From: Dictyostelium discoideum
Lineage: Eukaryota
Direction: 5' to 3'
NCBI GenBank assembly: GCA_000004695.1
Contig: CM000152.2
Span: forward strand, 896,001 to 960,000
Length of the DNA: 64,000 nt
The notes beneath the pieces were generated by a model. That model saw only the letters and a program-made list of their open reading frames with translations, had not been told where the DNA came from and made no database searches. Below are positions 11,158 through 26,533 of the stretch, one piece after another. Both the position numbers and the translations under genes were made by a program. Positions within the stretch are counted from its first letter, which is position 1. Every line of letters starts with the position of its first letter.

Positions 11158-12849
11158 ATGATAAATGACCATGAATCAGTAATTGATGTTGGATCTGATG
11201 ATGAAAGAGAAAACTTTGAAGATGAAGAAGATACAACAACAGTTTATTCAAGTGATCCTTTATCAAGACCTACAATGGATAGATCATTAGCAGCTAAAAT
11301 GTATATTGAACAATATTATATAAATGCTCAACAATCTGTAAAAGAAAGAGGTCAAAGGTAAATTTTAAAATAAATAAATAAATAAATAAATAAATAAATT
11401 CTAATTCTTTTTATTTTTTTTATATTTTTTTATTATTTTTTTTTAAATTTATTTAGAAGAAAAGATTTAGAATTAAAATTAGAAAATATGAAATTATCAT
11501 CAAAAGAATCAAATGATCTAAGAAAAGAATTGGATAAGAAAGAATCTGATTATATGAGAATAAAGAGATTAAAATTGAAGAGATCGGATTTTGAAGTTAT
11601 TAGGATCATTGGTAGGGGTGCATTTGGGGAGGTTAGTTTGGTACGTCATAGGGAATCGAATGATTTGTATGCAATGAAGAGATTAAAGAAATCAGAGATG
11701 TTAAAGAAGGAGCAAGCAGCACATGTTAGGGCTGAACGTGACGTATTGGCAAGTGCAAACACTAATTGGGTGGTGAAACTCTACTATTCGTTCCAAGATG
11801 ACAATTACTTGTACTTGATTATGGAGTATCTCCCCGGCGGCGATATGATGTCCCTTTTGATAAAGTATGACATTTTCACAGAGAATCAAGCACGTTTCTA
11901 CATAGCAGAGACTATTTTAGCCATTGAGTCTGTGCACACATTGGGTTACATTCATCGTGATATTAAACCCGATAATCTATTGCTAGACTCAAAGGGACAT
12001 GTGAAGCTTTGCGATCTCGGCTTGTGCACTGGTTTCCATCGTTTGCATTCCTCAGAATTCTATCAAATGTTGGTGGGCGATGCCATGACAATCAAGATGA
12101 AGCTCATCGAAGCAACACCCTTGACCCAGACTGAGAGAATCGCATCTTGGAAGAAGGCAAGAAGGGCCTTGGCCTACAGTGCTGTCGGCACCCCTGACTA
12201 TACCGCTCCAGAGGTGTTCCTACAAATTGGGTATAATAAAGAGGTGGATTGGTGGTCACTTGGTGTCATACTCTATGAGATGGTTGTGGGTCATCCACCA
12301 TTTCTATCGGATAACACCACTGAGACTTGTTTAAAGATTCTCAATTGTAAAGAAACACTTCAAATTCCAACCGATATGGGTCTTTCAAAAGAAGTGATTG
12401 ATCTCATCAAAAGATTGGTTTGTGAGAAGGATCGTTACAAATCTGCTGATGAAATTAAATTACATCCATTCTTTAAAGGTGTGAATTGGGATAACATTAG
12501 AAATCAATCAGCACCATTCGTTCCAGAATTAAAAAGTCCAACTGATACTTCAAATTTTGATATTTATGAAGAAATTCCAAATGATATCGATGATGATGAT
12601 AATAACAATAATAATAATAGTAATAACAATATAAATTTAAATGATAATATAAATTCAAACTGTACATATACAACTCCAACTAAAAAATCAAATATTATGG
12701 GTAAAGGTAATATAAAAGATAAAGATTTAGCCTTTATTGGTTTCACTTTTAAAGGTTTTGACGCTGTAAATAAAAGTCCAACAAATAGAAGAAATGTTGA
12801 GTCAATTTTTAATACGAATAATTCAACAACTACTTCAACAACAAAATAA
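11158..12849 (+). CDS. NDR/LATS-family AGC serine/threonine kinase, 2 exons (11158..11357, 11457..12849)
   Basis: N-terminal regulatory region [19 protein letters not shown]. Donor GTAAAT at 11358 and acceptor ATTTAG at 11455-56 join in phase 2. Kinase motifs are [25 protein letters not shown] and DLGLCTG. An NDR-type insert lies between subdomains VII and VIII before GTPDYTAPE. The C-terminal hydrophobic motif is FIGFTFKGF. Confidence 0.85.
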
Positions 12850-13095
12850 ATTAAAAATATTAAAAAATAATAAAAATAATATATATAAATATTAAATAGT
12901 ACTAAAAATAATAATATATAAATAAATTAATTTATATTTATAAATAAAATTTTTTTTTTCAAAAAAAAAAAAAAAGATAATTTATTTATTTTTTTTATTT
13001 TTTTTTATAATTTTAGAAGATAATAAAAACTTAATTTTCTCTTCTTTTTTTTTAAATTTTTTAGGGGTGTTTATAATATACATATATATATGTCA

Positions 13096-13134
<39 letters not shown>

Positions 13135-13147
13135 GGGAGGGGTGATT

Positions 13148-13474
13148 TTAAAAGTCAGATACCCTTCCATTTCTTTCCCAATCATTATATCTGGTTGGTT
13201 CTGGGCCTTTTGGTCCACCAATTTCTTTTGTTATTGGATTAACATATGGTTTAAATTCATCTTCGTCAAATTCTTCTTCTAAATCTTGTAAAAGTTGTTG
13301 ATTTTCCTTACTCATTTCAGCTTTTTTATTTGAAATATTGTTATTATTATTATTATTATTATTATTGTTATTGTTATTTATTGTTGTTGAATAAAAACTA
13401 CAATTAATTTTATTTGTTTGTTTGGTTGCATTCAAATAAATAATTTTATTGAATTTACTAATTAGGTTGTTCAT
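13148..13474 (-). CDS. Succinate dehydrogenase assembly factor 4 (SDHAF4 / DUF1674)
   Basis: The C-terminus [25 protein letters not shown] matches the conserved SDHAF4 C-terminal signature. It is a small single-exon 108-aa protein with a poly-N linker. Confidence 0.65.
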
Positions 13475-18107: not shown

Positions 18108-19845
18108 AATAATGAATAATATTTATTTATTTATATTTATTAATTTTTTTTTAAAAAAGGGAATTCAAAAAAAATCAAATGGATTACGTACTCAAATTTT
18201 AGGTAAATTAAATGATGATGGATCACCAATTTTTAAAAAAGATACAATACTTAATCATGTAGCTGAGGAATTAATAATAGATATGAAAGAAAATAAAGCA
18301 ATTGAGATTAAACATGAATTTTTTAGAGATATAGATTTTAATAGATTAAATCGTAAAACAAATAAAATTGGTGAAAATTGGATCACTGTGGATAAATTTC
18401 CATTTGGTTCACTTGTTATTCCAAAATTTAAAGAAATTTGTCACTCTGTTTTAAAAGAATTATTTTTAATTAATAGAGATGATACACTAATAAAAATAAA
18501 TTCATTAGCAGAAGATATTTTAATTGGATTTATTGATAGTTGTTTCAATGATAAAACTCCAGTTGGAAAGGAAATTTTATTTGAACTTTTTAAAAACCAT
18601 ATACTTAATAATAATAAAACTGATGAAATTGAATCATTATTCCCAATTGAAAGAATAATAAATAGTTGTATTATTAGAGATGATTGGTTTAGATTTAATT
18701 ATGGTAAATCAATAGCACAAGATTTATTTTTACCACATTTTCAAGATAGTTTTTCAATAAATGTTTATGAAAATTATCAATTATTCACACACAAAAATAT
18801 TTCTAAATTATCAGATAATGTATTGTTAAAGCATACAAATAGGAAAAAGTCAGAATCAATAGTGATTGGAGAATCATCAATTGTTAATAAGGAAAAGTTT
18901 ATTGAAAATTTTCATTTGGTTACAAATAATATGTTTAATGATTTTTCAAAAATTCCAAAAACATGTTATTTTATTGGTGGTATACTTACAGCATGTTTAA
19001 CAGATTCAATTAATGAAGATGAATATAGAGATAGCGATATTGATGTTTGTTTTACTGGTTATGAGTCAAATGATATTGTAGAGTTCGTTGAAACATATTT
19101 TGGATCTTTGGATGAATTACAAACTGATAAAACAACTACGATTCATGGTGATCATTTAACAATTTCAAAGTATTATCCAAATAGACATGTTCAAATTAAT
19201 CTTCACTTTTATCCTACACTTGAGAGCATTTTAGTAGGTGTTGATATCGATGCATCTTGTTTTGCATTCAATGGAAAGGATTTATACTGTTTGGAAAGAG
19301 CTATGCATTCAATAAATTATAGTATTAACATTGCTTGTGAATTTAACTTTAATGTTAGAGGTAATGGCCATTATCAAAAACGGTTGGTTAAATATTTAGA
19401 TCGTGGTTTTCATATCTACTATTTACCAACACCACAAATTAATTATTTTTTTAGTGATATTATACTTAAGGTGAGTGAAAATGATGGGTTCTCTCCAACA
19501 CTTAATCAGAATGGAATTGCTTTATTAGCATCAGCAAGCCTATCAAAACAAATTCTAAAAGAGTTAAAGAAACCATCATTTTCAATTCCTTATGGTCCAT
19601 CATATGATAAAATAAGTACAGATTTGTTCATTAGATCAACCTATAAATCTATGTATAATGGGTATTCAACACCAATGTGTCATAGAATTATAGATACTGT
19701 TGGTGAAGGCGAAGATTCAATTAATACCATTTTATTTGAAACCAGATCTATCGAGAGTCTATCTTTTAATAGATATTCATGGGAACAACATATCACCAAT
19801 GAAGCTTTAAGATCAAATTTATTTAATTATAACCAATTTTTTTAA
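17723..19845 (+). CDS. Hypothetical protein with nucleotidyltransferase-fold-like motif, 2 exons (17723..18070, 18160..19845)
   Basis: ORFs 17723..18103 and 18112..19845 are joined by an 89-nt intron, with donor GTAGGT at 18071 and acceptor AAAAAG at 18158-59 in phase 0. Internal motif FIGGILTACLTDSINEDEYRDSDIDVCF, followed about 60 aa later by LVGVDIDASCF. Confidence 0.55.
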
Positions 19846-19949
19846 ACTTTAAATAAATAAAAAAAAAAAAAGTAAAAAAACACCAATTGAATCAAAATTT
19901 ATTAATTTAAAATTAAAGAATAAAATTTATTTTTAATTTTTTTTTTTGT

Positions 19950-20760
19950 TTTTCGATTTTCATTTTCGTTTGTAATTTTTTATAGGCCCATATGGTTGGT
20001 TATATATTTGATTCAGAAAGTTTTGCTTTGTGGAAAGTTTTTTTTTTTTCCCTTCTTTGGATAAAAATGCAACTATTAATTAATATTTGTCGACACCACC
20101 TTTGTTACCAAGTGGGTTATTTAAATTATTAGTACTTTGATTATTTGATTTTTCAAAATTAATTGAAATTGATTTTGAGTTGATGTCATCAAAGGTTTTA
20201 TTTAAGGCTGATGATGAGGATTTATTTAAAATTTTTGTTAATGTAGTGAAAATCATTTTTTATTTTAATTTATTATTTTTATTAAATTAAACTATATTTT
20301 TTTATAAAATTATAATATTTTATTATTTTAAATTTTATTTAATTTAATTATATTTGTTTTGAATGAATAGAAATGAAAAATCATTTTTTTTATTAAATAC
20401 TTTTTAAAAAAATAAAAAAAATAAAATAAAAATAAAAAAATAAATAATTAATGTTAAAAATAGAATTCTATTTTAATAGTAACTTAACAAGTTGATGCTC
20501 CCCAATGGATTATTAAAAAAACGAAAAATAAGTTAATTTTAACATTATATTGATGATAAAATTGGATGGAAATGATGGAGAGAAAAATATCAAAAATAAA
20601 CATTCAACTGAAAATTATCAATATTATGATCGTTGTTATTTAGTATAACTATTTATTGAACATATAATATTCATTTTTACACTAATATTTCACTTTTAAT
20701 TGTGACTAATCCACAAATAATTTACCCCTTTATTTTTTAAATTATTTGTTTTTATTTTTA
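19950..20760. repeat. Direct repeat copy A, about 0.8 kb, paired with 22150..23010
   Basis: By eye, roughly 85-90% identity to copy B over blocks such as tttcgtttgtaat, cccatatggttggttata, ctttggataaaaat, ccacctttgttaccaagtgg and cacttttaattgtgac.aatccacaaat. Confidence 0.7.
20080..20256 (-). CDS. Small conserved ORF (58 aa) inside repeat copy A
   Basis: Translation MIFTTLTKILNKSSSSALNKTFDDINSKSISINFEKSNNQSTNNLNNPLGNKGGVDKY. The paralogous ORF in copy B differs by substitutions and one 3-nt indel that preserves the frame. Confidence 0.3.
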   Translation of the reverse strand: MIFTTLTKILNKSSSSALNKTFDDINSKSISINFEKSNNQSTNNLNNPLGNKGGVDKY

Positions 20761-21099
20761 AATTCGAACTAAAATAATTTTGTTAAACCCCTAAAAAAAA
20801 AAAAAATTAAAGTGCATTATGGGTTAAATAGTTTTTGTATTGTGGAATAATTTAAAAAATTTGGGTGTAAAAATGATTATTATTTTTTACCCAATAAAAT
20901 TAGTGCCAATTATATTAGTTATTTATCAGTTGGAAATACCTCATCGATCTGATTTAATAAGTTAAATGGGGATTATCTAATCATTCAATTTAGATAATCC
21001 TCCTTTAACTTATTTTTGGGTTTTAAACTATTTTTATCGAAAGCATTGATTTGTTAAATAACTATACTGTGATTATCAGTTCTATTTATAACTTTTTTT

Positions 21100-21143
<44 letters not shown>

Positions 21144-22149
21144 AAATAAAAAAAAAAAAAATTTTTTAATCAAAAATGAAAATTCTATTTCATTACCCAA
21201 ATAATTAAAAACAAATAAAAAAACGAAATTAAAATATAATCAACCTAAAAATGATTTCAATACTTTAACTAAAATTTCAAATAAAACATCATCATCATCA
21301 TCTTCAAATACAAGATTTGGTATTAATTCTAACTAGTTCAAATAAATTTTGGTAATAATTTAAAAATGATAGCTTCATTGTCAATTAATAAACTTGGTCC
21401 AAGAGGTGGTATTTGACAAATCAAAAATTCAATTTTCAATTATAAAATTATGCTCTCGATTGTGCACGAAAAAAAAAAAAAAAAAAATTAAATAAAACTT
21501 TCATTTTTCTATGATTTTAATTTATTTTTTAATTTTATTATATTTCAACTATTATTTGTATTTAATTTATTTTAATTTACCACCATTGAAAAATCAAAAA
21601 TATAATTAAAAAATAAAATTAGTTAAAAAAAAAAAAAAGTATGAAATGATTTTTGGAACAATTATTATACAAATATAATCAATTTTTTACACATTGTTCA
21701 ATTGATTGAAAAATAATATAATAACCCCATATTATATTTTATATGATTTTATTACACTAGAGTTTTATTGAACAACCCCACCACAAAAAAAAAAATAAAA
21801 AAAAATAATTTAATAATTAAATAAAAAAATTGAATTATTTGTGGACTTACCGCCATGGCAAAGATGAATGATTATAGATTGTATAATTGAATTATGAACA
21901 ATAATAATATTTATTTTCATTTGTCACTATTTTTGGTTTATTGTTTTTATATATTTTTACACGTTTTCAAATCGATCAATAAAGATTTATCATCTTACTA
22001 TAAAATAAAAAGAAATACAACAAAATAAATTAAAAAAATTAAAATTAAATAAAATAAATTCCAATATGAAATTATATTATCTTTAAAAAAAAAATTAAAA
22101 TTTAATTAAAAAATAAATTTTTTTTTAAAGTTTATTTTAATTTAATTGT

Positions 22150-23010
22150 TTTTCAATTTATTTTTTCGTTTGTAATATTTTTTATAAACCCATATGGTTG
22201 GTTATAAATTTAATTCGGAAAGTTTTGTTTTGTTGAATTTGGAGTGGAAATTCCCTTTTTTTTTCTTTGGATAAAAATACAATTATTAATTAAAAGTTCT
22301 TGATATACCACCTTTGTTACCAAGTGGATTATTTAAAATAATAGTACTTTGATTATTAGATTTTTCAAAATTAATTGAAATTGATTTCGAATTGATATCA
22401 AAGGTTTTATTTAAGGCTGACGATGAGGATTTATTTAAAATTTTTGTTAATGAAGTGAAAATCATTTTTTATTTTAATTATTTTTATAAACTATTTAGAT
22501 ATTATCTTATTAAAATAATAATATTTAATTATAAATTTTTTTTTTTTAATTGTATTGAGTAATGAATAGAAATGAAAAATCATTTTTTTTATTAAATACT
22601 TATTAAAAAAAATAAAAATTAAATAAAAAAATAAAAATAAAAGAAAATAATAAAATAAAAATAATAAATGTTAAAAATAGAATTCTATTTTAATAGTGAC
22701 TTATCAAGTCGATGCTTGAGAATGTATTATTAAAAAACGAGAAATAAGTTAATATTGTAATTAAATTGTAATTAAATTGATGATATAATTGGATCGAAAT
22801 GATGGAGAGAAAAATATCAAAAATAATATTCAACTGAAAATTAACAATATTATGATAGTTGTTATTCAGTACAATTATTTATTGAACAAATAATATTCAT
22901 TTTTACACAAATATTTCACTTTTAATTGTGACCAATCCACAAATTACAAACAAATAATTCACCCCCTTTTTTATTTTAAATTATTTGTTTTTTATTATTT
23001 TTTCTTTTTT
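22150..23010. repeat. Direct repeat copy B, about 0.86 kb, paired with 19950..20760
   Basis: Same conserved blocks in the same order and orientation as copy A. Confidence 0.7.
22286..22465 (-). CDS. Small conserved ORF (59 aa) inside repeat copy B
   Basis: Translation MIFTSLTKILNKSSSSALNKTFDINSKSISINFEKSNNQSTIILNNPLGNKGGISRTFN. This is a paralogue of the copy A ORF. Confidence 0.3.
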   Translation of the reverse strand: MIFTSLTKILNKSSSSALNKTFDINSKSISINFEKSNNQSTIILNNPLGNKGGISRTFN

Positions 23011-23080
23011 TTTATTTTTTTTTTTTAGTGGTTGAACAAATAAACTTAAGGTTTCAATTCAAAACACAATTATTAAAAAT

Positions 23081-23276
23081 AAAAAAAAACCCAATTCAAT
23101 GATTAATAATTAATATTAAAAAAAAAAAAATCAATATTTCTATAAAATAAAAAAATAAAAAAATAAAAATAAGATTTCAATGAAATTATTATTGACTTTA
23201 ATCTTAAATTCCTACTCTAAAATTTTTTTTATTTTTTTTTTAAATAATTATTAATCATTGAATTGGGTTTTTTTTA
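23081..23276. repeat. 31-bp perfect inverted repeat pair (23081..23114 / 23244..23276) flanking about 130 bp; MITE-like
   Basis: aaaaaaaacccaattcaatgattaataatta and its exact reverse complement aataattattaatcattgaattgggtttttttt, located immediately after repeat copy B. Confidence 0.5.
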
Positions 23277-23656
23277 ATCCAAATACTTTGGTAAAATTAC
23301 TAACAAAATGTTCAAGTATATTTATATATATTTATTATTTTTAAATCATTAATTTTTAGATCCCAACCAAAATAATTTTGTTTATTTTTTATATAAAAAA
23401 AAAAAAATAAAAAAAATAAAAAGAATATAAAAAAATAAAAAAATTAAAAAAAAGTGATAAGATTAGATCCATGGAGAAATGGTGATTATTCAATTAATAT
23501 CACAAATGAAAGTATTAAAATCAAATGAACAAATTAATAATCAAACTTTTTAATTATTAAAACAATACAATACAATACAATACAATTTATTTATTTTTTA
23601 ATTTTTTTTTTTATTATTTTTTTTATTTTATTTTATTTTTATAAAGATAATTTGAA

Positions 23657-26533
23657 TCAGTTTGCATTTGCAAATTCTCTTGAAACGAGAATAGCTTCAT
23701 CGATTTTATCTAATTTAGAACCAACACCTTGAGCAACATCAACTTTACCACCACCTTTACCACCTAAAACTTCGGTAACCTTTACAACCCAAGCATTTGC
23801 AGTTAAAGTTTTTGAGATTTCAGAATCTTTTGGAACGATACCAATGCAAGTAACTTTACCTTTTTCTTCATCTGGACTAATTAACATGATTGCAGTCATT
23901 GGTGATTTAGTTTGAATTTTTTTAATGGTTTCAGTGATTAAAGGAGTATTTGAATTGAAGTTTACTAAATCTACGAAAACCTTTGGTTGAGATTTAGCCA
24001 ATTCTTCAGAGGTTTTCTCTAAATAGGTTTGAGCTTGTTGAGCCAAGATGGTTTCTTGTTCTTTGACTTGTTTTCTTTGGAGTGCTTGAACTTCCTTCAA
24101 AGTTTCAACCAAATTCATACGAACACTTGCTGAAATGGTGACAACCTTGAGAAGATCTAATAAGGAAACGATTTCCTTGGCAAGTTCTGAACCTGATAAT
24201 TTGAGGGCATTATTGAATCTGACTTCCAATTCTTTATTGAGTTCTATAGCAGAGGCAGCTTCAGAACCAGTGACAGCGACGATACGACGTACACCAGCAC
24301 CCAAAGTTTCTTCAGAGGTAATGGTGAAGAGTTCAGCTTGTTTAGTGTTTGACAAATGTGTACCACCACAAAATTCGATGGAATAGTTTGCCCATTCTGG
24401 ATTGGTTGGATTTTCAATCAATTGTTCAACTGGTACACCAACAGAGACAACTCTAACTGGATCTGGATAAACTTCACCGAAAACTGCACGAAGACCATTG
24501 ATCTTTTTAGCGGAAGCCAAACCGACCTCTTTGGCGTGAACATCGAGTTGTTTAAAGATTTGATCATTAACGATTTGGTCAATTTTAATGAGTTCATCCT
24601 TGGTGATTGCTCTACCAAATGAAAAATCGAATCTGAAACGTTGAGCGTCGACAAAGGAACCACGTTGATCGATACCATCACCTAAAATATTCTTGAGTGC
24701 GTAATTGACCATATGAGTTGATGTATGATTTGACATAATTGGTGAACGACGAGTATAGTCGACGGTGAGTTCAACACGATCACCAACTTTCAAAGAATCG
24801 CATTCATAGGAGAGGTAACCAATATGAAGTACATAACCACCAAATACTTTACAATCCTTGACGTCGAAAGCAGTCTTTTGATCATCGATGAAACTCAATT
24901 GACCAATATCATAGATTTGACCACCTTGTTCAGCGTAAAAGTTTGAATTCTCTAAAACTACACCAATTAAGGTACCCTTTGGAGCAGTGTCAACAAATTC
25001 CTTACCATTCCAAATGGCTTTGATAACTGATTGAATTTCATGTTGTTTATATTTGAATGAATCATCGGTTGGTTTGATATCGTTATTCTTTAACCATGCA
25101 TTTGCTTCAGCACCGAGTGTTAATTCGACCTTCTTTTCCTTTTGACGTTTACGATCGATTTCAGATTGAGCTTCACAGAGTCCTTCATAACCTTTGATAT
25201 CGACTTTGTAATTCTTTTCTTCGGCCATAATGGTGGTTAAATCGATTGGGAAACCATAACAAGTTGAAAGGAAATAAGCATTCTCGGCAGAGAGGGTATT
25301 ATTTACACTCTTTTTGATCATTTTTTCAAATTCAACAATACCTTTCTCCAAAGTTTTATTGAACATATCCTCCTCACGAGTGAGTACCATTTTGATGTGT
25401 TCTGGTTTCTTTCTGAGTTCTGGGAAGAATTCACCAAAGTTTGCAATGACAACATCAACCAATTTAGAGAAGAAACCAGCTGGTGCATTTAATTTTTGTT
25501 TACCATAACGGACGGCACGACGAAGGATTCTACGGAGGACTTGACCTCTACCATCGACGGATGGGGCGGCACCATCAGCAATTGAGAATGTGAGTGTACG
25601 AATGTGATCGGCAATGACACGATAGGCCATATCAACTTGTTGTGTATCTTCAGCACCGACTTTTCCACCGTATGGTTCTGGATAACCAGTTACCTCTTGA
25701 ATGGCGGCAAAGATTGGCATAAAAACATCGGTATCATAATTGGTTGGTACTTTTTGAATGATTGAAGTTAAACGTTCGAGACCCATACCAGTGTCGACGT
25801 GTTTTTGTGGTAATGGACGTAAGGATTTATCAGCCTCACGATTATATTGAATGAAAACCAAATTCCAAATTTCAATCAAAGTTGGGTCATCAGCATTGAC
25901 AAAGGAGGCACCATCACGACCTTCCACTTTGTCATAGTGGATCTCTGAACATGGACCACATGGACCTTGGTCACCCATCTCCCAAAAGTTCTCTTTCATA
26001 CCGAATGGGAGCACACGTTCCTCTGGTAAATATTGCAACCAAAGGTTCTTTGCTTCGAGATCTGCTTCCAATCCTTTCTCTGGGTCACCTCTAAAGTAAG
26101 TGACATATAAACGTTCTTTATCTAATTTGTATACCTCTGTCAATAATTCCCATGCCCAAGTGATTGCCTCCTTCTTAAAGTAATTGCCAAATGACCAATT
26201 ACCCAACATCTCAAAGAAGGTGTGATGATAAGTATCCTTACCTACATCATCCAAATCATTATGTTTACCACCTGCACGAATACATTTTTGACTATTGACT
26301 GCTCTCTTCAATTTTGCTTGTTCTGATTTTGGATTAACTTGTCCTAAAAAGATTGGTTTAAATTGATTCATACCTGCATTTGCAAATAATAAAGTTGGAT
26401 CATCATGTGGAATTACTGCTGATGATGGAACAAATGTATGTTCACATTTCTCTCTAAAAAAATCGATAAAAGTTTTTCTAATTTGATTAACATCCATTTT
26501 TTTTCTTCTTTTATATTTTCTCTCTCCTTCCAA
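23657..26533 (-). CDS. alaS: Alanyl-tRNA synthetase (class II aaRS), cytoplasmic
   Basis: 958-codon ORF with LLFANAGMNQFKPIFLG (AlaRS motif), HYDKVEGRDGASFVNADDPTLIEIWNLVFIQYNRE, editing-domain HTSTHM, and a C-terminal domain. The true start may be the second Met (MDVNQIRKTF). Confidence 0.9.
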   Translation of the reverse strand: MEGERKYKRRKKMDVNQIRKTFIDFFREKCEHTFVPSSAVIPHDDPTLLFANAGMNQFKPIFLGQVNPKSEQAKLKRAVNSQKCIRAGGKHNDLDDVGKDTYHHTFFEMLGNWSFGNYFKKEAITWAWELLTEVYKLDKERLYVTYFRGDPEKGLEADLEAKNLWLQYLPEERVLPFGMKENFWEMGDQGPCGPCSEIHYDKVEGRDGASFVNADDPTLIEIWNLVFIQYNREADKSLRPLPQKHVDTGMGLERLTSIIQKVPTNYDTDVFMPIFAAIQEVTGYPEPYGGKVGAEDTQQVDMAYRVIADHIRTLTFSIADGAAPSVDGRGQVLRRILRRAVRYGKQKLNAPAGFFSKLVDVVIANFGEFFPELRKKPEHIKMVLTREEDMFNKTLEKGIVEFEKMIKKSVNNTLSAENAYFLSTCYGFPIDLTTIMAEEKNYKVDIKGYEGLCEAQSEIDRKRQKEKKVELTLGAEANAWLKNNDIKPTDDSFKYKQHEIQSVIKAIWNGKEFVDTAPKGTLIGVVLENSNFYAEQGGQIYDIGQLSFIDDQKTAFDVKDCKVFGGYVLHIGYLSYECDSLKVGDRVELTVDYTRRSPIMSNHTSTHMVNYALKNILGDGIDQRGSFVDAQRFRFDFSFGRAITKDELIKIDQIVNDQIFKQLDVHAKEVGLASAKKINGLRAVFGEVYPDPVRVVSVGVPVEQLIENPTNPEWANYSIEFCGGTHLSNTKQAELFTITSEETLGAGVRRIVAVTGSEAASAIELNKELEVRFNNALKLSGSELAKEIVSLLDLLKVVTISASVRMNLVETLKEVQALQRKQVKEQETILAQQAQTYLEKTSEELAKSQPKVFVDLVNFNSNTPLITETIKKIQTKSPMTAIMLISPDEEKGKVTCIGIVPKDSEISKTLTANAWVVKVTEVLGGKGGGKVDVAQGVGSKLDKIDEAILVSREFANAN

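Follow-up and report, generated by a model that had tools for sequence, protein, structure and literature searches.

What occupies the gap between the convergent genes alaS (EAL68084) and a 'Gad2'-domain gene on chromosome 3 of Dictyostelium discoideum AX4, and are the short reading frames that lie within it genes? An earlier note on the 64,000-nt stretch analyzed here (the window) had described 19846-23656 as a 3.8-kb intergenic gap that contains two diverged direct repeats, each with a conserved small ORF, followed by a MITE-like inverted repeat. We find that the gap is occupied by two annotated genes and by an unannotated third copy, inverted on the plus strand at 20800-21416, which had been overlooked. 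The reading that we favor, at a probability of roughly three in four, is that three copies of one ~0.9-1.0-kb gene unit form a lineage-specific cluster here, each made up of ~135 nt of 3' flank, a 58-aa ORF and a conserved 5' region of ~500 nt (Table 1).

Table 1. Features of the cluster between alaS and its neighbor, in window positions
Feature	Position	Strand	Evidence or comparison
3' flank of unit A	19945..20079	-	83% to unit B; present beside the ORF remnant in L010
ORF A = DDB_G0278465 (Q54Y22), 58 aa, MIFTTLTKILNK...NPLGNKGGVDKY	20080..20256	-	intact in L001, L005, L007 and L012
Unit A 5' region; presumably promoter plus 5' UTR	20257..20757	-	blocks common to B, C and dictyostelid homologue L002
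Unit C 5' region, facing unit A head-to-head	20800..21250	+	65.6% over 390 nt to A, opposite strand
Unit C ORF remnant, unannotated pseudogene	21251..21416	+	frame broken by two 1-nt deletions
C-B spacer	21417..22139	.	in L010, part 21712-22005 lies beyond the 3' end of the one B-like copy
3' flank of unit B	22140..22285	-	alignment with unit A
ORF B = DDB_G0278467 (Q54Y21), 59 aa	22286..22465	-	intact in L001 (61 aa), L007 and L012 (62 aa)
5' region of unit B	22466..23000	-	AX4 vs L001 95% identical
Junction block TAGTGGTTGAACAAATAAACTTAAGGTTTCAA...	23018..23081	.	also after unit A in L001; inside the head-to-head pair in L010
Inverted repeat, left arm, 31 nt, perfect	23082..23112	+	local inverted-repeat search, fold
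Inverted-repeat loop, 132 nt, A+T-rich	23113..23244	.	local inverted-repeat search, fold
Inverted repeat, right arm	23245..23275	-	within 23213-23396, the stretch missing in L001
Ancestral sequence beyond the 3' end of alaS; limit of the lineage-specific block on the right	23463..23656	.	common to species without the cluster

Three copies of one gene unit

The direct repeats are borne out by both blastn and MAFFT as 19945-20757 and 22140-23000, in the same orientation. The blastn match pairs 19904-20753 with 22099-22992 at 82% identity (916 gapped columns, 26 gap openings, bit score 871), the mean column identity of the MAFFT alignment is 89%, and similarity falls to 41% past 20757. Divided by part, A and B are most alike in the ORF (92.5% identity), followed by the 5' region (88%) and the 3' flank (83%), and nucleotide conservation of the ORF is thus only slightly above that of the 5' region. 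It is the pattern of substitutions and indels, together with other genomes, that carries the coding signal, not the identity between A and B.

Both minus-strand ORFs were found where they had been placed and with the sequences given for them (20080-20256, 58 aa; 22286-22465, 59 aa). The 3-nt indel (GTC) that separates them is present and keeps the frame, but it is not their sole length difference, as had been said: a 2-nt indel directly after the GG codons leaves A and B with C-terminal tails in different frames (VDKY and ISRTFN, respectively). Other indels do break the alternative frames, as proposed: in the 5' region, A and B differ by indels of 1 and 11 nt, and a second protein gene there was rejected because these interrupt its ORFs. 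Two further candidates were also set aside. A C/D-box snoRNA look-alike in the 5' region of A and B (TGATGA...CTGA, 20551-20612, plus strand) loses its CTGA box and spacing in copy C and in the L002 homologue when aligned by eye, and a DUSE-like AACCCATAA at 20817-20825 on the minus strand is not kept in strain L001, so it is probably a chance match. An Rfam scan of 18500-25000 at E <= 1 returned only a chance U7 match inside the neighboring gene, and no tRNA was found in the window.

The third copy stands head-to-head with A and is a pseudogene with two frameshifts. When repaired, its ORF reads MIFNTLTKISNKTSSSSSSNTRFGINSK.LVQINFGNNLKMIASLSINKLGPRGGI, ending in a stop, and its 5' region carries the blocks GTGTAAAAATGA, TTTTCAGTTG, TTAACTTATTTTT.G and GCAT..A.TTGTTAA. 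Copy C is broken in a different way in each of four lineages: by two 1-nt frameshifts in AX4, by a 3' truncation in L001, by a deletion of ~185 nt in L012 and by an internal deletion in D. cf. discoideum L010. Because A and B are intact while C decays in these four ways, C serves as an internal control that supports selection on A and B. Separately, 23040-23465 was considered as a remnant of a second C copy; its local alignment score to unit C in the expected orientation was 49, compared with 43 on average for shuffled sequence (sd 5.5), and the idea was rejected.

Selection on ORFs A and B

The pattern of substitutions and indels shows ORFs A and B to be under purifying selection. Estimates of dN/dS, which are noisy because the ORFs are short (~35 synonymous sites), range from 0.16 to 0.59 over all pairs, with values of 0.16 for A (AX4 vs L001), 0.39 for B and ~0.4 in comparison with the other species. 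Between the two ORF copies, the check that the earlier note had proposed, the ratio is 0.28, well short of the value of 1 that it had named as telling against its reading. Fisher tests were significant for the two orthologous contrasts summed (p = 0.003) and for A vs B (p = 0.011), though not for B taken by itself (p = 0.14). Within the ORFs, strains differ by indels of 3, 6, 6 and 9 nt only, whereas just 8 of 44 non-coding indels have a length divisible by three, and those in the flanks are of every length. The exception to frame-keeping is the 2-nt indel described above, which is tolerated in the variable C-terminal tail. Both ORFs are also intact in two other D. discoideum assemblies.

An alternative that has to be weighed is that the ORFs have no function and that the repeats are a young segmental duplication drifting neutrally, its frames open by chance and low divergence. 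The excess of ORF over 5' identity between A and B is small, and low divergence alone does not amount to coding constraint, since the 5' region of B is as conserved between strains as the ORF itself (95%). The paralogues are also nearly silent in published RNA-seq, and AlphaFold2 predicts no confident fold for the protein (pLDDT 60, pTM 0.15). However, neutral drift does not sit well with dN/dS of 0.16-0.39 and a significant synonymous excess, nor with indels in the conserved core that are all in frame across three haplotypes and two paralogues. Over the same time, copy C and both L010 copies gained frameshifts and deletions, and the family is conserved, at 61-88% amino-acid identity, on three chromosomes and in another species. 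We therefore regard non-functional ORFs as unlikely.

A Dictyostelium-restricted family of small proteins

ORFs A and B are already annotated, each as 'hypothetical protein' (exact matches EAL68405/XP_642380 and EAL68406/XP_642381). They belong to a family of at least six AX4 genes, with two in the window, three on chromosome 1 and one on chromosome 4 (DDB_G0278465, DDB_G0278467, DDB_G0268676, DDB_G0268688, DDB_G0268690 and DDB_G0283179). The six members share 61-88% amino-acid identity, and strain variants are additional to them. This is an undescribed, Dictyostelium-restricted family of small Asn/Ser-rich proteins, in which conservation falls on the N-terminus MIFTSLTKILNKSSSS, on SKSI.INFEKSN in the middle of the protein and on NPLG..GG close to the C-terminus. 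Tryptic peptides expected from the family proteins include SISINFEK and ILNKSSSSALNK.

A profile search of 1.84 billion representatives added a single sequence, a 53-aa homologue from another dictyostelid, and of the 366 pattern stretches that matched when metagenomes were scanned for relatives, not one was a true relative. No Pfam match was obtained at E <= 10 for 8 members, the repaired copy C or the homologue from the other species; as a control, UPF0512 protein C matched PF05710 at 3.4e-07. A literature search found none of the six gene IDs named in any paper, and the supplements of PMC7078664 and PMC11367525 contained no matches for the family, the latter having no proteomic match. Taken with the annotation, the dN/dS ratios, the indels and the decay of copy C, the family bears out the earlier suggestion of a local segmental duplication of a small-protein gene that is under purifying selection. 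The further idea that this duplication is seeding a small-protein family has to be dropped, as the family is already present on three chromosomes.

The known proteins that most invite comparison are those of the hssA/2C/7E group (PF05710 'Coiled', UPF0512), which are likewise small (75-90 aa), found only in Dictyostelium and encoded by many clustered paralogues. Their N-terminus, M[TA]IF.SISSISN, is similar to MIFTSLTKILNK of the family described here, both have a Ser/Asn-rich middle, and an LG..GG element aligned in one profile comparison. With two UPF0512 sequences, hhalign gave a probability of 35% (E 3.9e-4) over 49 columns; with 25 sequences, this fell to 7% (E 0.005) over 17 N-terminal columns only. 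In contrast, the present family is unmatched by the PF05710 profile at E <= 10, and the Gly/Cys-rich C-terminal half and invariant NIINLDIDIGRRHRRCC tail of hssA/2C/7E are absent from 10 of 10 family sequences, all of which lack Cys. A second parallel is with taxonomically restricted orphan families of small proteins that have expanded through local tandem and inverted duplication. There, as here, whole gene units are duplicated together with their promoter, some copies are under purifying selection while a neighbor is pseudogenized, and the cluster is missing at the orthologous site of sister species. The cluster is indistinguishable from this general kind.

Evidence on expression comes from the paralogues, for which RNA-seq values are 0.1-0.8 TPM, in stalk samples only. 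Raw reads number 1-6 in two time courses, in the later samples only, so that counts are near zero, and 0 of the 6 family IDs are among the differentially expressed genes that Rosengarten et al. 2015 list in full. The conserved 5' region, presumably a promoter and 5' UTR, would by analogy with the chromosome 1 paralogues drive very low, late-developmental, stalk-associated expression, and the products may be short peptides, probably disordered and similar in general kind to the hssA/2C/7E proteins. A broader proposal, which we offer only as a speculation and judge rather improbable, is that this is a young peptide family of the D. discoideum complex, whose self-contained ~1-kb cassettes (promoter, ORF and 3' flank, often in head-to-head pairs) reach new chromosomal sites and are then kept by selection or lost. 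Under this proposal, the peptides would have a role late in development, in stalk or another cell type, and an N-terminal MIF.S[IL]..I.N module in common with hssA/2C/7E, which would hint at a shared signal for processing or targeting in a superfamily of Dictyostelium micro-proteins.

History of the cluster and of the inverted repeat

D. citrinum, D. dimigraforme and D. firmibasis have no such cluster at the orthologous site. The distance from alaS to its neighbor is 3811 nt in AX4, 3377 in L001, 3501 in L012 and 1957 in L010, which has a dead pair, compared with 312 in D. citrinum and 105 in D. dimigraforme. A target-site duplication for the whole cluster was sought and not accepted, as D. 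citrinum and D. dimigraforme have diverged too far at their empty sites for the edges to be placed. The junction block follows unit A in L001 and lies within the L010 pair, and the original duplicated unit thus extended to this block. We infer that the cluster began as a single head-to-head pair, the arrangement found in L010, and that a later duplication of the minus-strand unit with its junction block would have given the order A-C-spacer-B. C probably then lost its function, and it and the L010 copies would now be decaying.

This history competes with one in which the ~0.9-kb unit was inserted between alaS and its neighbor as a mobile or repeat-family cassette of low copy number, with a small ORF of its own. 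Such a cassette would explain why units are scattered over chromosomes 1, 3 and 4, why the whole cluster is missing at the orthologous site in three sister species, and why non-coding parts of the unit accompany the ORF even in another species; moreover, locus L011 gained an unrelated palindromic insert at the same intergenic site. In the alignments, however, the unit ends show neither terminal repeats, inverted or direct, nor a poly(A) tail or a target-site duplication, although the edges are too diverged for certainty. Annotated copies number only six, the Pfam scan found no transposase or reverse-transcriptase similarity, and local tandem and inverted duplication accounts for A, B and C. 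A mobile cassette is thus very unlikely in our view, and we retain local duplication as the preferred history.

The earlier note had also drawn attention to a perfect 31-bp inverted repeat after unit B. The repeat is real, with its boundaries corrected to 23082-23112 and 23245-23275 around a loop of 132 nt. No other local inverted repeat in the 64-kb window is as long, and the remaining long ones are all homopolymer-like. The arm core of this repeat has a chance expectation of 0.01 matches, and as DNA the repeat folds at -42.6 kcal/mol, with a z-score of -7.3. The reading of this 194-bp module (23082-23275) as a MITE, such as a thug-like non-autonomous DNA transposon, draws on its size, its perfect 31-nt terminal arms and its A+T-rich core, all of which recall the hairpin-bearing thug-S elements known in D. 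discoideum (PMC4894637), and on the presence of the right-arm segment in AX4 and L012 and its absence from L001. Unlike those elements, however, the module is single-copy in the sequence examined, with no second copy of the arm core in the 64-kb window or in 12 fetched loci apart from the AX4-like one, and the only flanking direct repeat is a trivial 3-nt AAT, which is unconvincing as a target-site duplication. In L001, the left arm and core are kept and the right arm is gone (23213-23396 missing), so the boundaries of this presence/absence polymorphism do not match the arm ends as an excision would. The L012 arms are mismatched at 6 of 24 core positions (~75% complementary), and the perfect identity is thus a feature of the AX4 lineage, not the mark of a recent insertion. 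The MITE-like reading is not supported by these tests, and we consider it highly improbable.

Selection for pairing is another possibility, with the repeat acting as a functional hairpin, either a small-RNA precursor or a DNA cruciform. Consistent with this idea are the strong fold and a change in the AX4 lineage of two adjacent left-arm bases from TC, found in L001 and L012, to CA, which pairs with the right arm. The majority of D. discoideum miRNA genes (the DrnB-dependent ddi-mir loci) are, like this repeat, intergenic and hairpin-forming (PMC6161686). The repeat is nonetheless dispensable, given the loss of the right arm from L001 and the poor pairing in L012; it is not among the miRNA loci tabulated in PMC6161686, its arm sequence appears in no paper searched, it has no Rfam match, and a 31-bp stem with a 132-nt loop is atypical of described precursors. 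We rate a functional hairpin as less probable still than a MITE. Rather than either of these, the repeat is probably an old local palindrome in which inter-arm exchange, through gene conversion or template switching, brought the two arms to identity in the AX4 lineage, with no sign that it is needed.

In summary, the locus does not challenge current understanding, and the practical gains are modest: one unannotated pseudogene is newly added, one candidate MITE is removed, and six 'hypothetical protein' entries of a model organism are joined into one family with a clear signature. The cluster also provides a dated example of the duplication, retention and decay of a gene unit among closely related Dictyostelium genomes. 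If the peptides are expressed, they would be an addition to a poorly understood set of Dictyostelium-specific micro-proteins.

Repeats A and B and a third, broken copy

The two direct repeats of the earlier note were recovered by blastn (19904-20753 against 22099-22992; 82% identity over 916 columns, 26 gap openings, bit score 871), and each contains the minus-strand ORF claimed for it. Mean column identity in a MAFFT alignment is 89%, and similarity stops near 20757/23000. By segment, A and B are 92.5% identical across the ORF; the 5' region reaches 88.3% and the 3' flank 83%, against 41% beyond the repeat. The product of ORF A is identical to EAL68405/XP_642380 (DDB_G0278465, UniProt Q54Y22) and that of ORF B to EAL68406/XP_642381 (DDB_G0278467, UniProt Q54Y21); both are therefore already annotated genes, each as a 'hypothetical protein'. 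They lie on chromosome 3, as does alaS, whose 946-aa product is identical to the D. discoideum AX4 alanyl-tRNA synthetase (EAL68084), and G+C content is 13-20% throughout the region. A 3-nt GTC indel had been described as the sole length difference between the ORFs: the indel is real, but a 2-nt indel directly after the GG codons also frameshifts the last few codons, giving the tails VDKY* (A) and ISRTFN* (B). Alternative ORFs in the 5' region are, as proposed, disrupted between the copies, by 1-nt and 11-nt indels. Overall, the repeats and ORFs are real, and their coding interpretation is well supported.

Left of the cluster lies a 577-aa ORF of a ~680-aa product. Scans of this gene against Pfam, PHROGs and PDB sequences gave no match; its orthologues carry a precomputed Pfam match, PF26128 'Gad2'. 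A weak U7 snRNA match inside its coding region (20.7 bits against a gathering score of 34, E 0.45) is almost certainly due to chance.

A third, inverted copy, C, had been missed. Unit A matches 21005-21351 on the opposite strand (blastn, 65.6% over 390 nt), and the plus strand from 21251 reads ATGATTTCAATACTTTAAC..., the family start minus one T. Repair of two 1-nt deletions yields MIFNTLTKISNKTSSSSSSNTRFGINSK.LVQINFGNNLKMIASLSINKLGPRGGI*, a full-length family member, which tblastn places on C as two pieces in different frames. The 5' region of C has the blocks of A and B. In order, the locus thus comprises unit A (-), unit C (+, head-to-head with A), a spacer and unit B (-). C is unannotated, since no gene ID falls between DDB_G0278465 and DDB_G0278467. 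Together, A and C make up an imperfect palindrome of ~2.2 kb, each side comprising an ORF and its 5' region at about 65% identity, a far larger inverted structure than the 31-nt repeat flagged earlier. The 5' region of C also holds a run of about 33-40 T, shorter in the D. discoideum assembly L001; promoter-proximal oligo(dT) of this sort is typical of Dictyostelium, and here the length differs among strains.

Features of the locus (window coordinates)
Feature	Position	Strand
'Gad2'-domain gene	18112-19845	+
U7 snRNA match	19511-19575	-
Unit A	19945-20757	-
ORF A	20080-20256	-
Box, unit A	20362-20387	-
A/C palindrome (centre around 20760-20800)	20256-21251	
Unit C	20800-21416	+
5' region of C	about 20800-21250	+
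T run	21097-21137	
ORF pieces of C	21256-21330, 21333-21413	+
Spacer sequence resembled in L010	21712-22005	
Unit B	22140-23000	-
ORF B	22286-22465	-
Box, unit B	22561-22586	-
Junction block after B	23018-23081	
Inverted-repeat arms	23082-23112, 23245-23275	
Segment missing in L001	23213-23396	
Segment shared with species without the cluster	23463-23656	
(CAATA)n microsatellite	23563-23586	
alaS	23657-26494	-

Selection and history of the site

Orthologous regions were taken from other assemblies via the neighbouring genes. The AX4 and L001 ORFs share 95% identity and differ by indels of 3, 6 and 6 nt only, and ORF B of L012 has a 9-nt insertion; the 44 flank indels are of all lengths, 8 of them multiples of three. 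Estimates of dN/dS (Nei-Gojobori), noisy because the sequences are short, were 0.16 for A and 0.39 for B between AX4 and L001 (one-sided Fisher p = 0.006 and 0.14 for the respective orthologues; 0.003 for the two contrasts summed). The A-B comparison called for in the earlier note gave 0.28 (p = 0.011, one-sided), and comparison with P0020, a homologue from another dictyostelid, about 0.4 (p = 0.018). Copy C serves as an internal control because it is broken differently in each lineage. Despite the noise, the pattern is uniform: A and B have been maintained and C has not.

The interval between alaS and the next gene in other assemblies (gap, distance from the alaS stop)
Assembly	Gap (nt)	Content	ORFs A and B	Copy C lesion
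AX4	3811	A, C, spacer, B	58 and 59 aa	two frameshifts
L007 (AX4-like)	3811	same layout as AX4		
L012 (D. discoideum GCA_054859385)	3501	A, C remnant, B	57 and 62 aa, intact	start in frame, then ~185-nt deletion
L001 (D. discoideum GCA_054859355)	3377	A, C remnant, B; non-coding 86-95% identical to AX4	59 and 61 aa, intact	47 codons open, then 3' end deleted
L010 (D. cf. discoideum)	1957	single head-to-head pair, both copies dead		last ~12 codons alone left
L011 (D. cf. discoideum GCA_054859235)	1610	unrelated palindromic insert; family sequence absent		
D. citrinum	312	cluster absent		
D. dimigraforme	105	cluster absent		
D. firmibasis	347	cluster absent; 'Gad2' gene missing too		

Both copies of the L010 pair are dead, the minus-strand one reduced to MIFTS and the 3' flank. 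A spacer resembling that of the window precedes the pair, and a block TAGTGGTTGAACAAATA...TTAAGGTTT joins its halves; the same block follows B in AX4 and, in L001, A as well. The ancestral state in the D. discoideum complex would have been a head-to-head pair, with the minus-strand unit probably duplicated later together with the junction block. Since dS is 0.25 for A-B and 0.11-0.19 between strains, the duplication dates from shortly before the strain split.

The 194 nt adjoining alaS are common to species without the cluster, and the alaS/'Gad2' intergenic site seems prone to insertions. In L011, nested long inverted repeats make up an unrelated insert of ~1.1 kb at this site (about positions 190-1290 on the reverse complement of 11842-13451); the outer arms read ...GCAAATATTAAAGAAAGTGATTTTGATAAGTGCCCT..., and ATAGCCAT-type repeats form the inner palindrome. 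A (CAATA)n microsatellite just 3' of alaS is short in AX4, at about 5 units, and has many more units in L001 and L012.

The inverted repeat after copy B

The perfect 31-nt inverted repeat was confirmed; its loop measures 132 nt. No other local inverted repeat in the window is as long, and the other long ones are all essentially homopolymer. The 24-nt arm core occurs at these two places alone, against 0.01 expected by chance, and the folding energy of the module in single-stranded form (DNA) is -42.6 kcal/mol (z = -7.3). The earlier note had likened it to the termini of a miniature element, a reading that the other strains do not support: both arms are present in L012 but differ at 6 of the 24 core positions, and L001 retains the left arm and loop but lacks the right arm. 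Nor was the repeat linked to any repeat family in the sequence compared. The left arm reads CCTCAT in L001 and L012 against CCCAAT, the right-arm state, in AX4, and the right arm reads AATAA in AX4 against AGTTA in L012. On the simplest reading, the palindrome would be old, and inter-arm exchange would have made its arms identical in the AX4 lineage. The repeat is dispensable, since L001 has lost one arm. The repeat is not among known miRNA loci, and its arm sequence appears in no searched paper; no support emerged for reading the region as what is left of a second C copy.

The protein family and its expression

A word-indexed search found strain variants of the family and paralogues with 61-74% identity on chromosome 1 (DDB_G0268676, DDB_G0268688, DDB_G0268690) and chromosome 4 (DDB_G0283179, 71 aa, with the LGN.GG element repeated internally). 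Among 1.84 billion cluster representatives, a profile search gave one true addition, the 53-aa P0020, from short dictyostelid genomic contigs (SRA runs SRR26869256/57/66); one other match was spurious and repetitive. Invariant positions are MIF..L....N, SS, K.....I.F and N.LG..GG. The family has no match in Pfam, and the literature search found its gene IDs named in no paper. AlphaFold2 on the family alignment gave two short helices at pLDDT 60 and pTM 0.15, so there is no confident fold.

The N-terminus resembles that of hssA/2C/7E (UPF0512), MTIFNSISSISN, and we compared the two families using 25 UPF0512/hssA proteins. Profile-profile alignment with two UPF0512 sequences reached 35% probability (E 3.9e-4, 49 columns, NPLG.KGG aligned to NDLG.WGG), but with all 25 only 7% (E 0.005, 17 N-terminal columns alone). 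The PF05710 profile recognises UPF0512 protein C (at 3.4e-07) but not the present family, which also lacks the half rich in Gly and Cys and the invariant ...NIINLDIDIGRRHRRCC tail. Membership in hssA/2C/7E is therefore not supported, although the common N-terminal motif offers a lead.

Upstream of the ORFs, A, B, C and the homologue at L002, from another dictyostelid, share the blocks GTGTAAAAATGA.TATTAT, TTTTCAGTTG, TTAACTTATTTTTCGTTTTTTTAA and GCATC.ACTTGTTAAGT.ACTAT. A conserved box, AAAATGATTTTTCATTTCTATTCATT, is present in A, B, L001, L012 and the L002 homologue, some 120-130 nt before the ATG. Its sequence is similar to that of the ORF start itself (AAAATGATTTTCAC...), and a short upstream ORF begins there but is not conserved further on. 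The 5' region has no conserved alternative ORF and no Rfam match, and in L010, where the ORFs are dead, it carries a ~170-nt insertion and deletions. Judging from sequence, it would represent promoter and 5' UTR.

Expression figures refer to the chromosome 1 paralogues. In PMC6198379, DDB_G0268688 and DDB_G0268690 were each seen in two of the three stalk samples, at 0.13-0.80 TPM; cup, spore and vegetative cells gave zero for both, and DDB_G0268676 was zero in all samples. Of the 38 filter-development samples of PMC4403905, roughly the first 25 had no reads from the paralogues and some of the later ones had 1-4; in the suspension series, 1-6 reads were confined to the last seven samples. Columns were taken as time-ordered from the header description and the smooth trend of a neighbouring gene. 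None of the six family IDs is in that study's complete list of differentially expressed genes. Thus, under laboratory conditions, any transcription of the family is very weak and comes late in development. The arrangement of the locus is an ordinary case of local duplication within a lineage-specific small-protein family.
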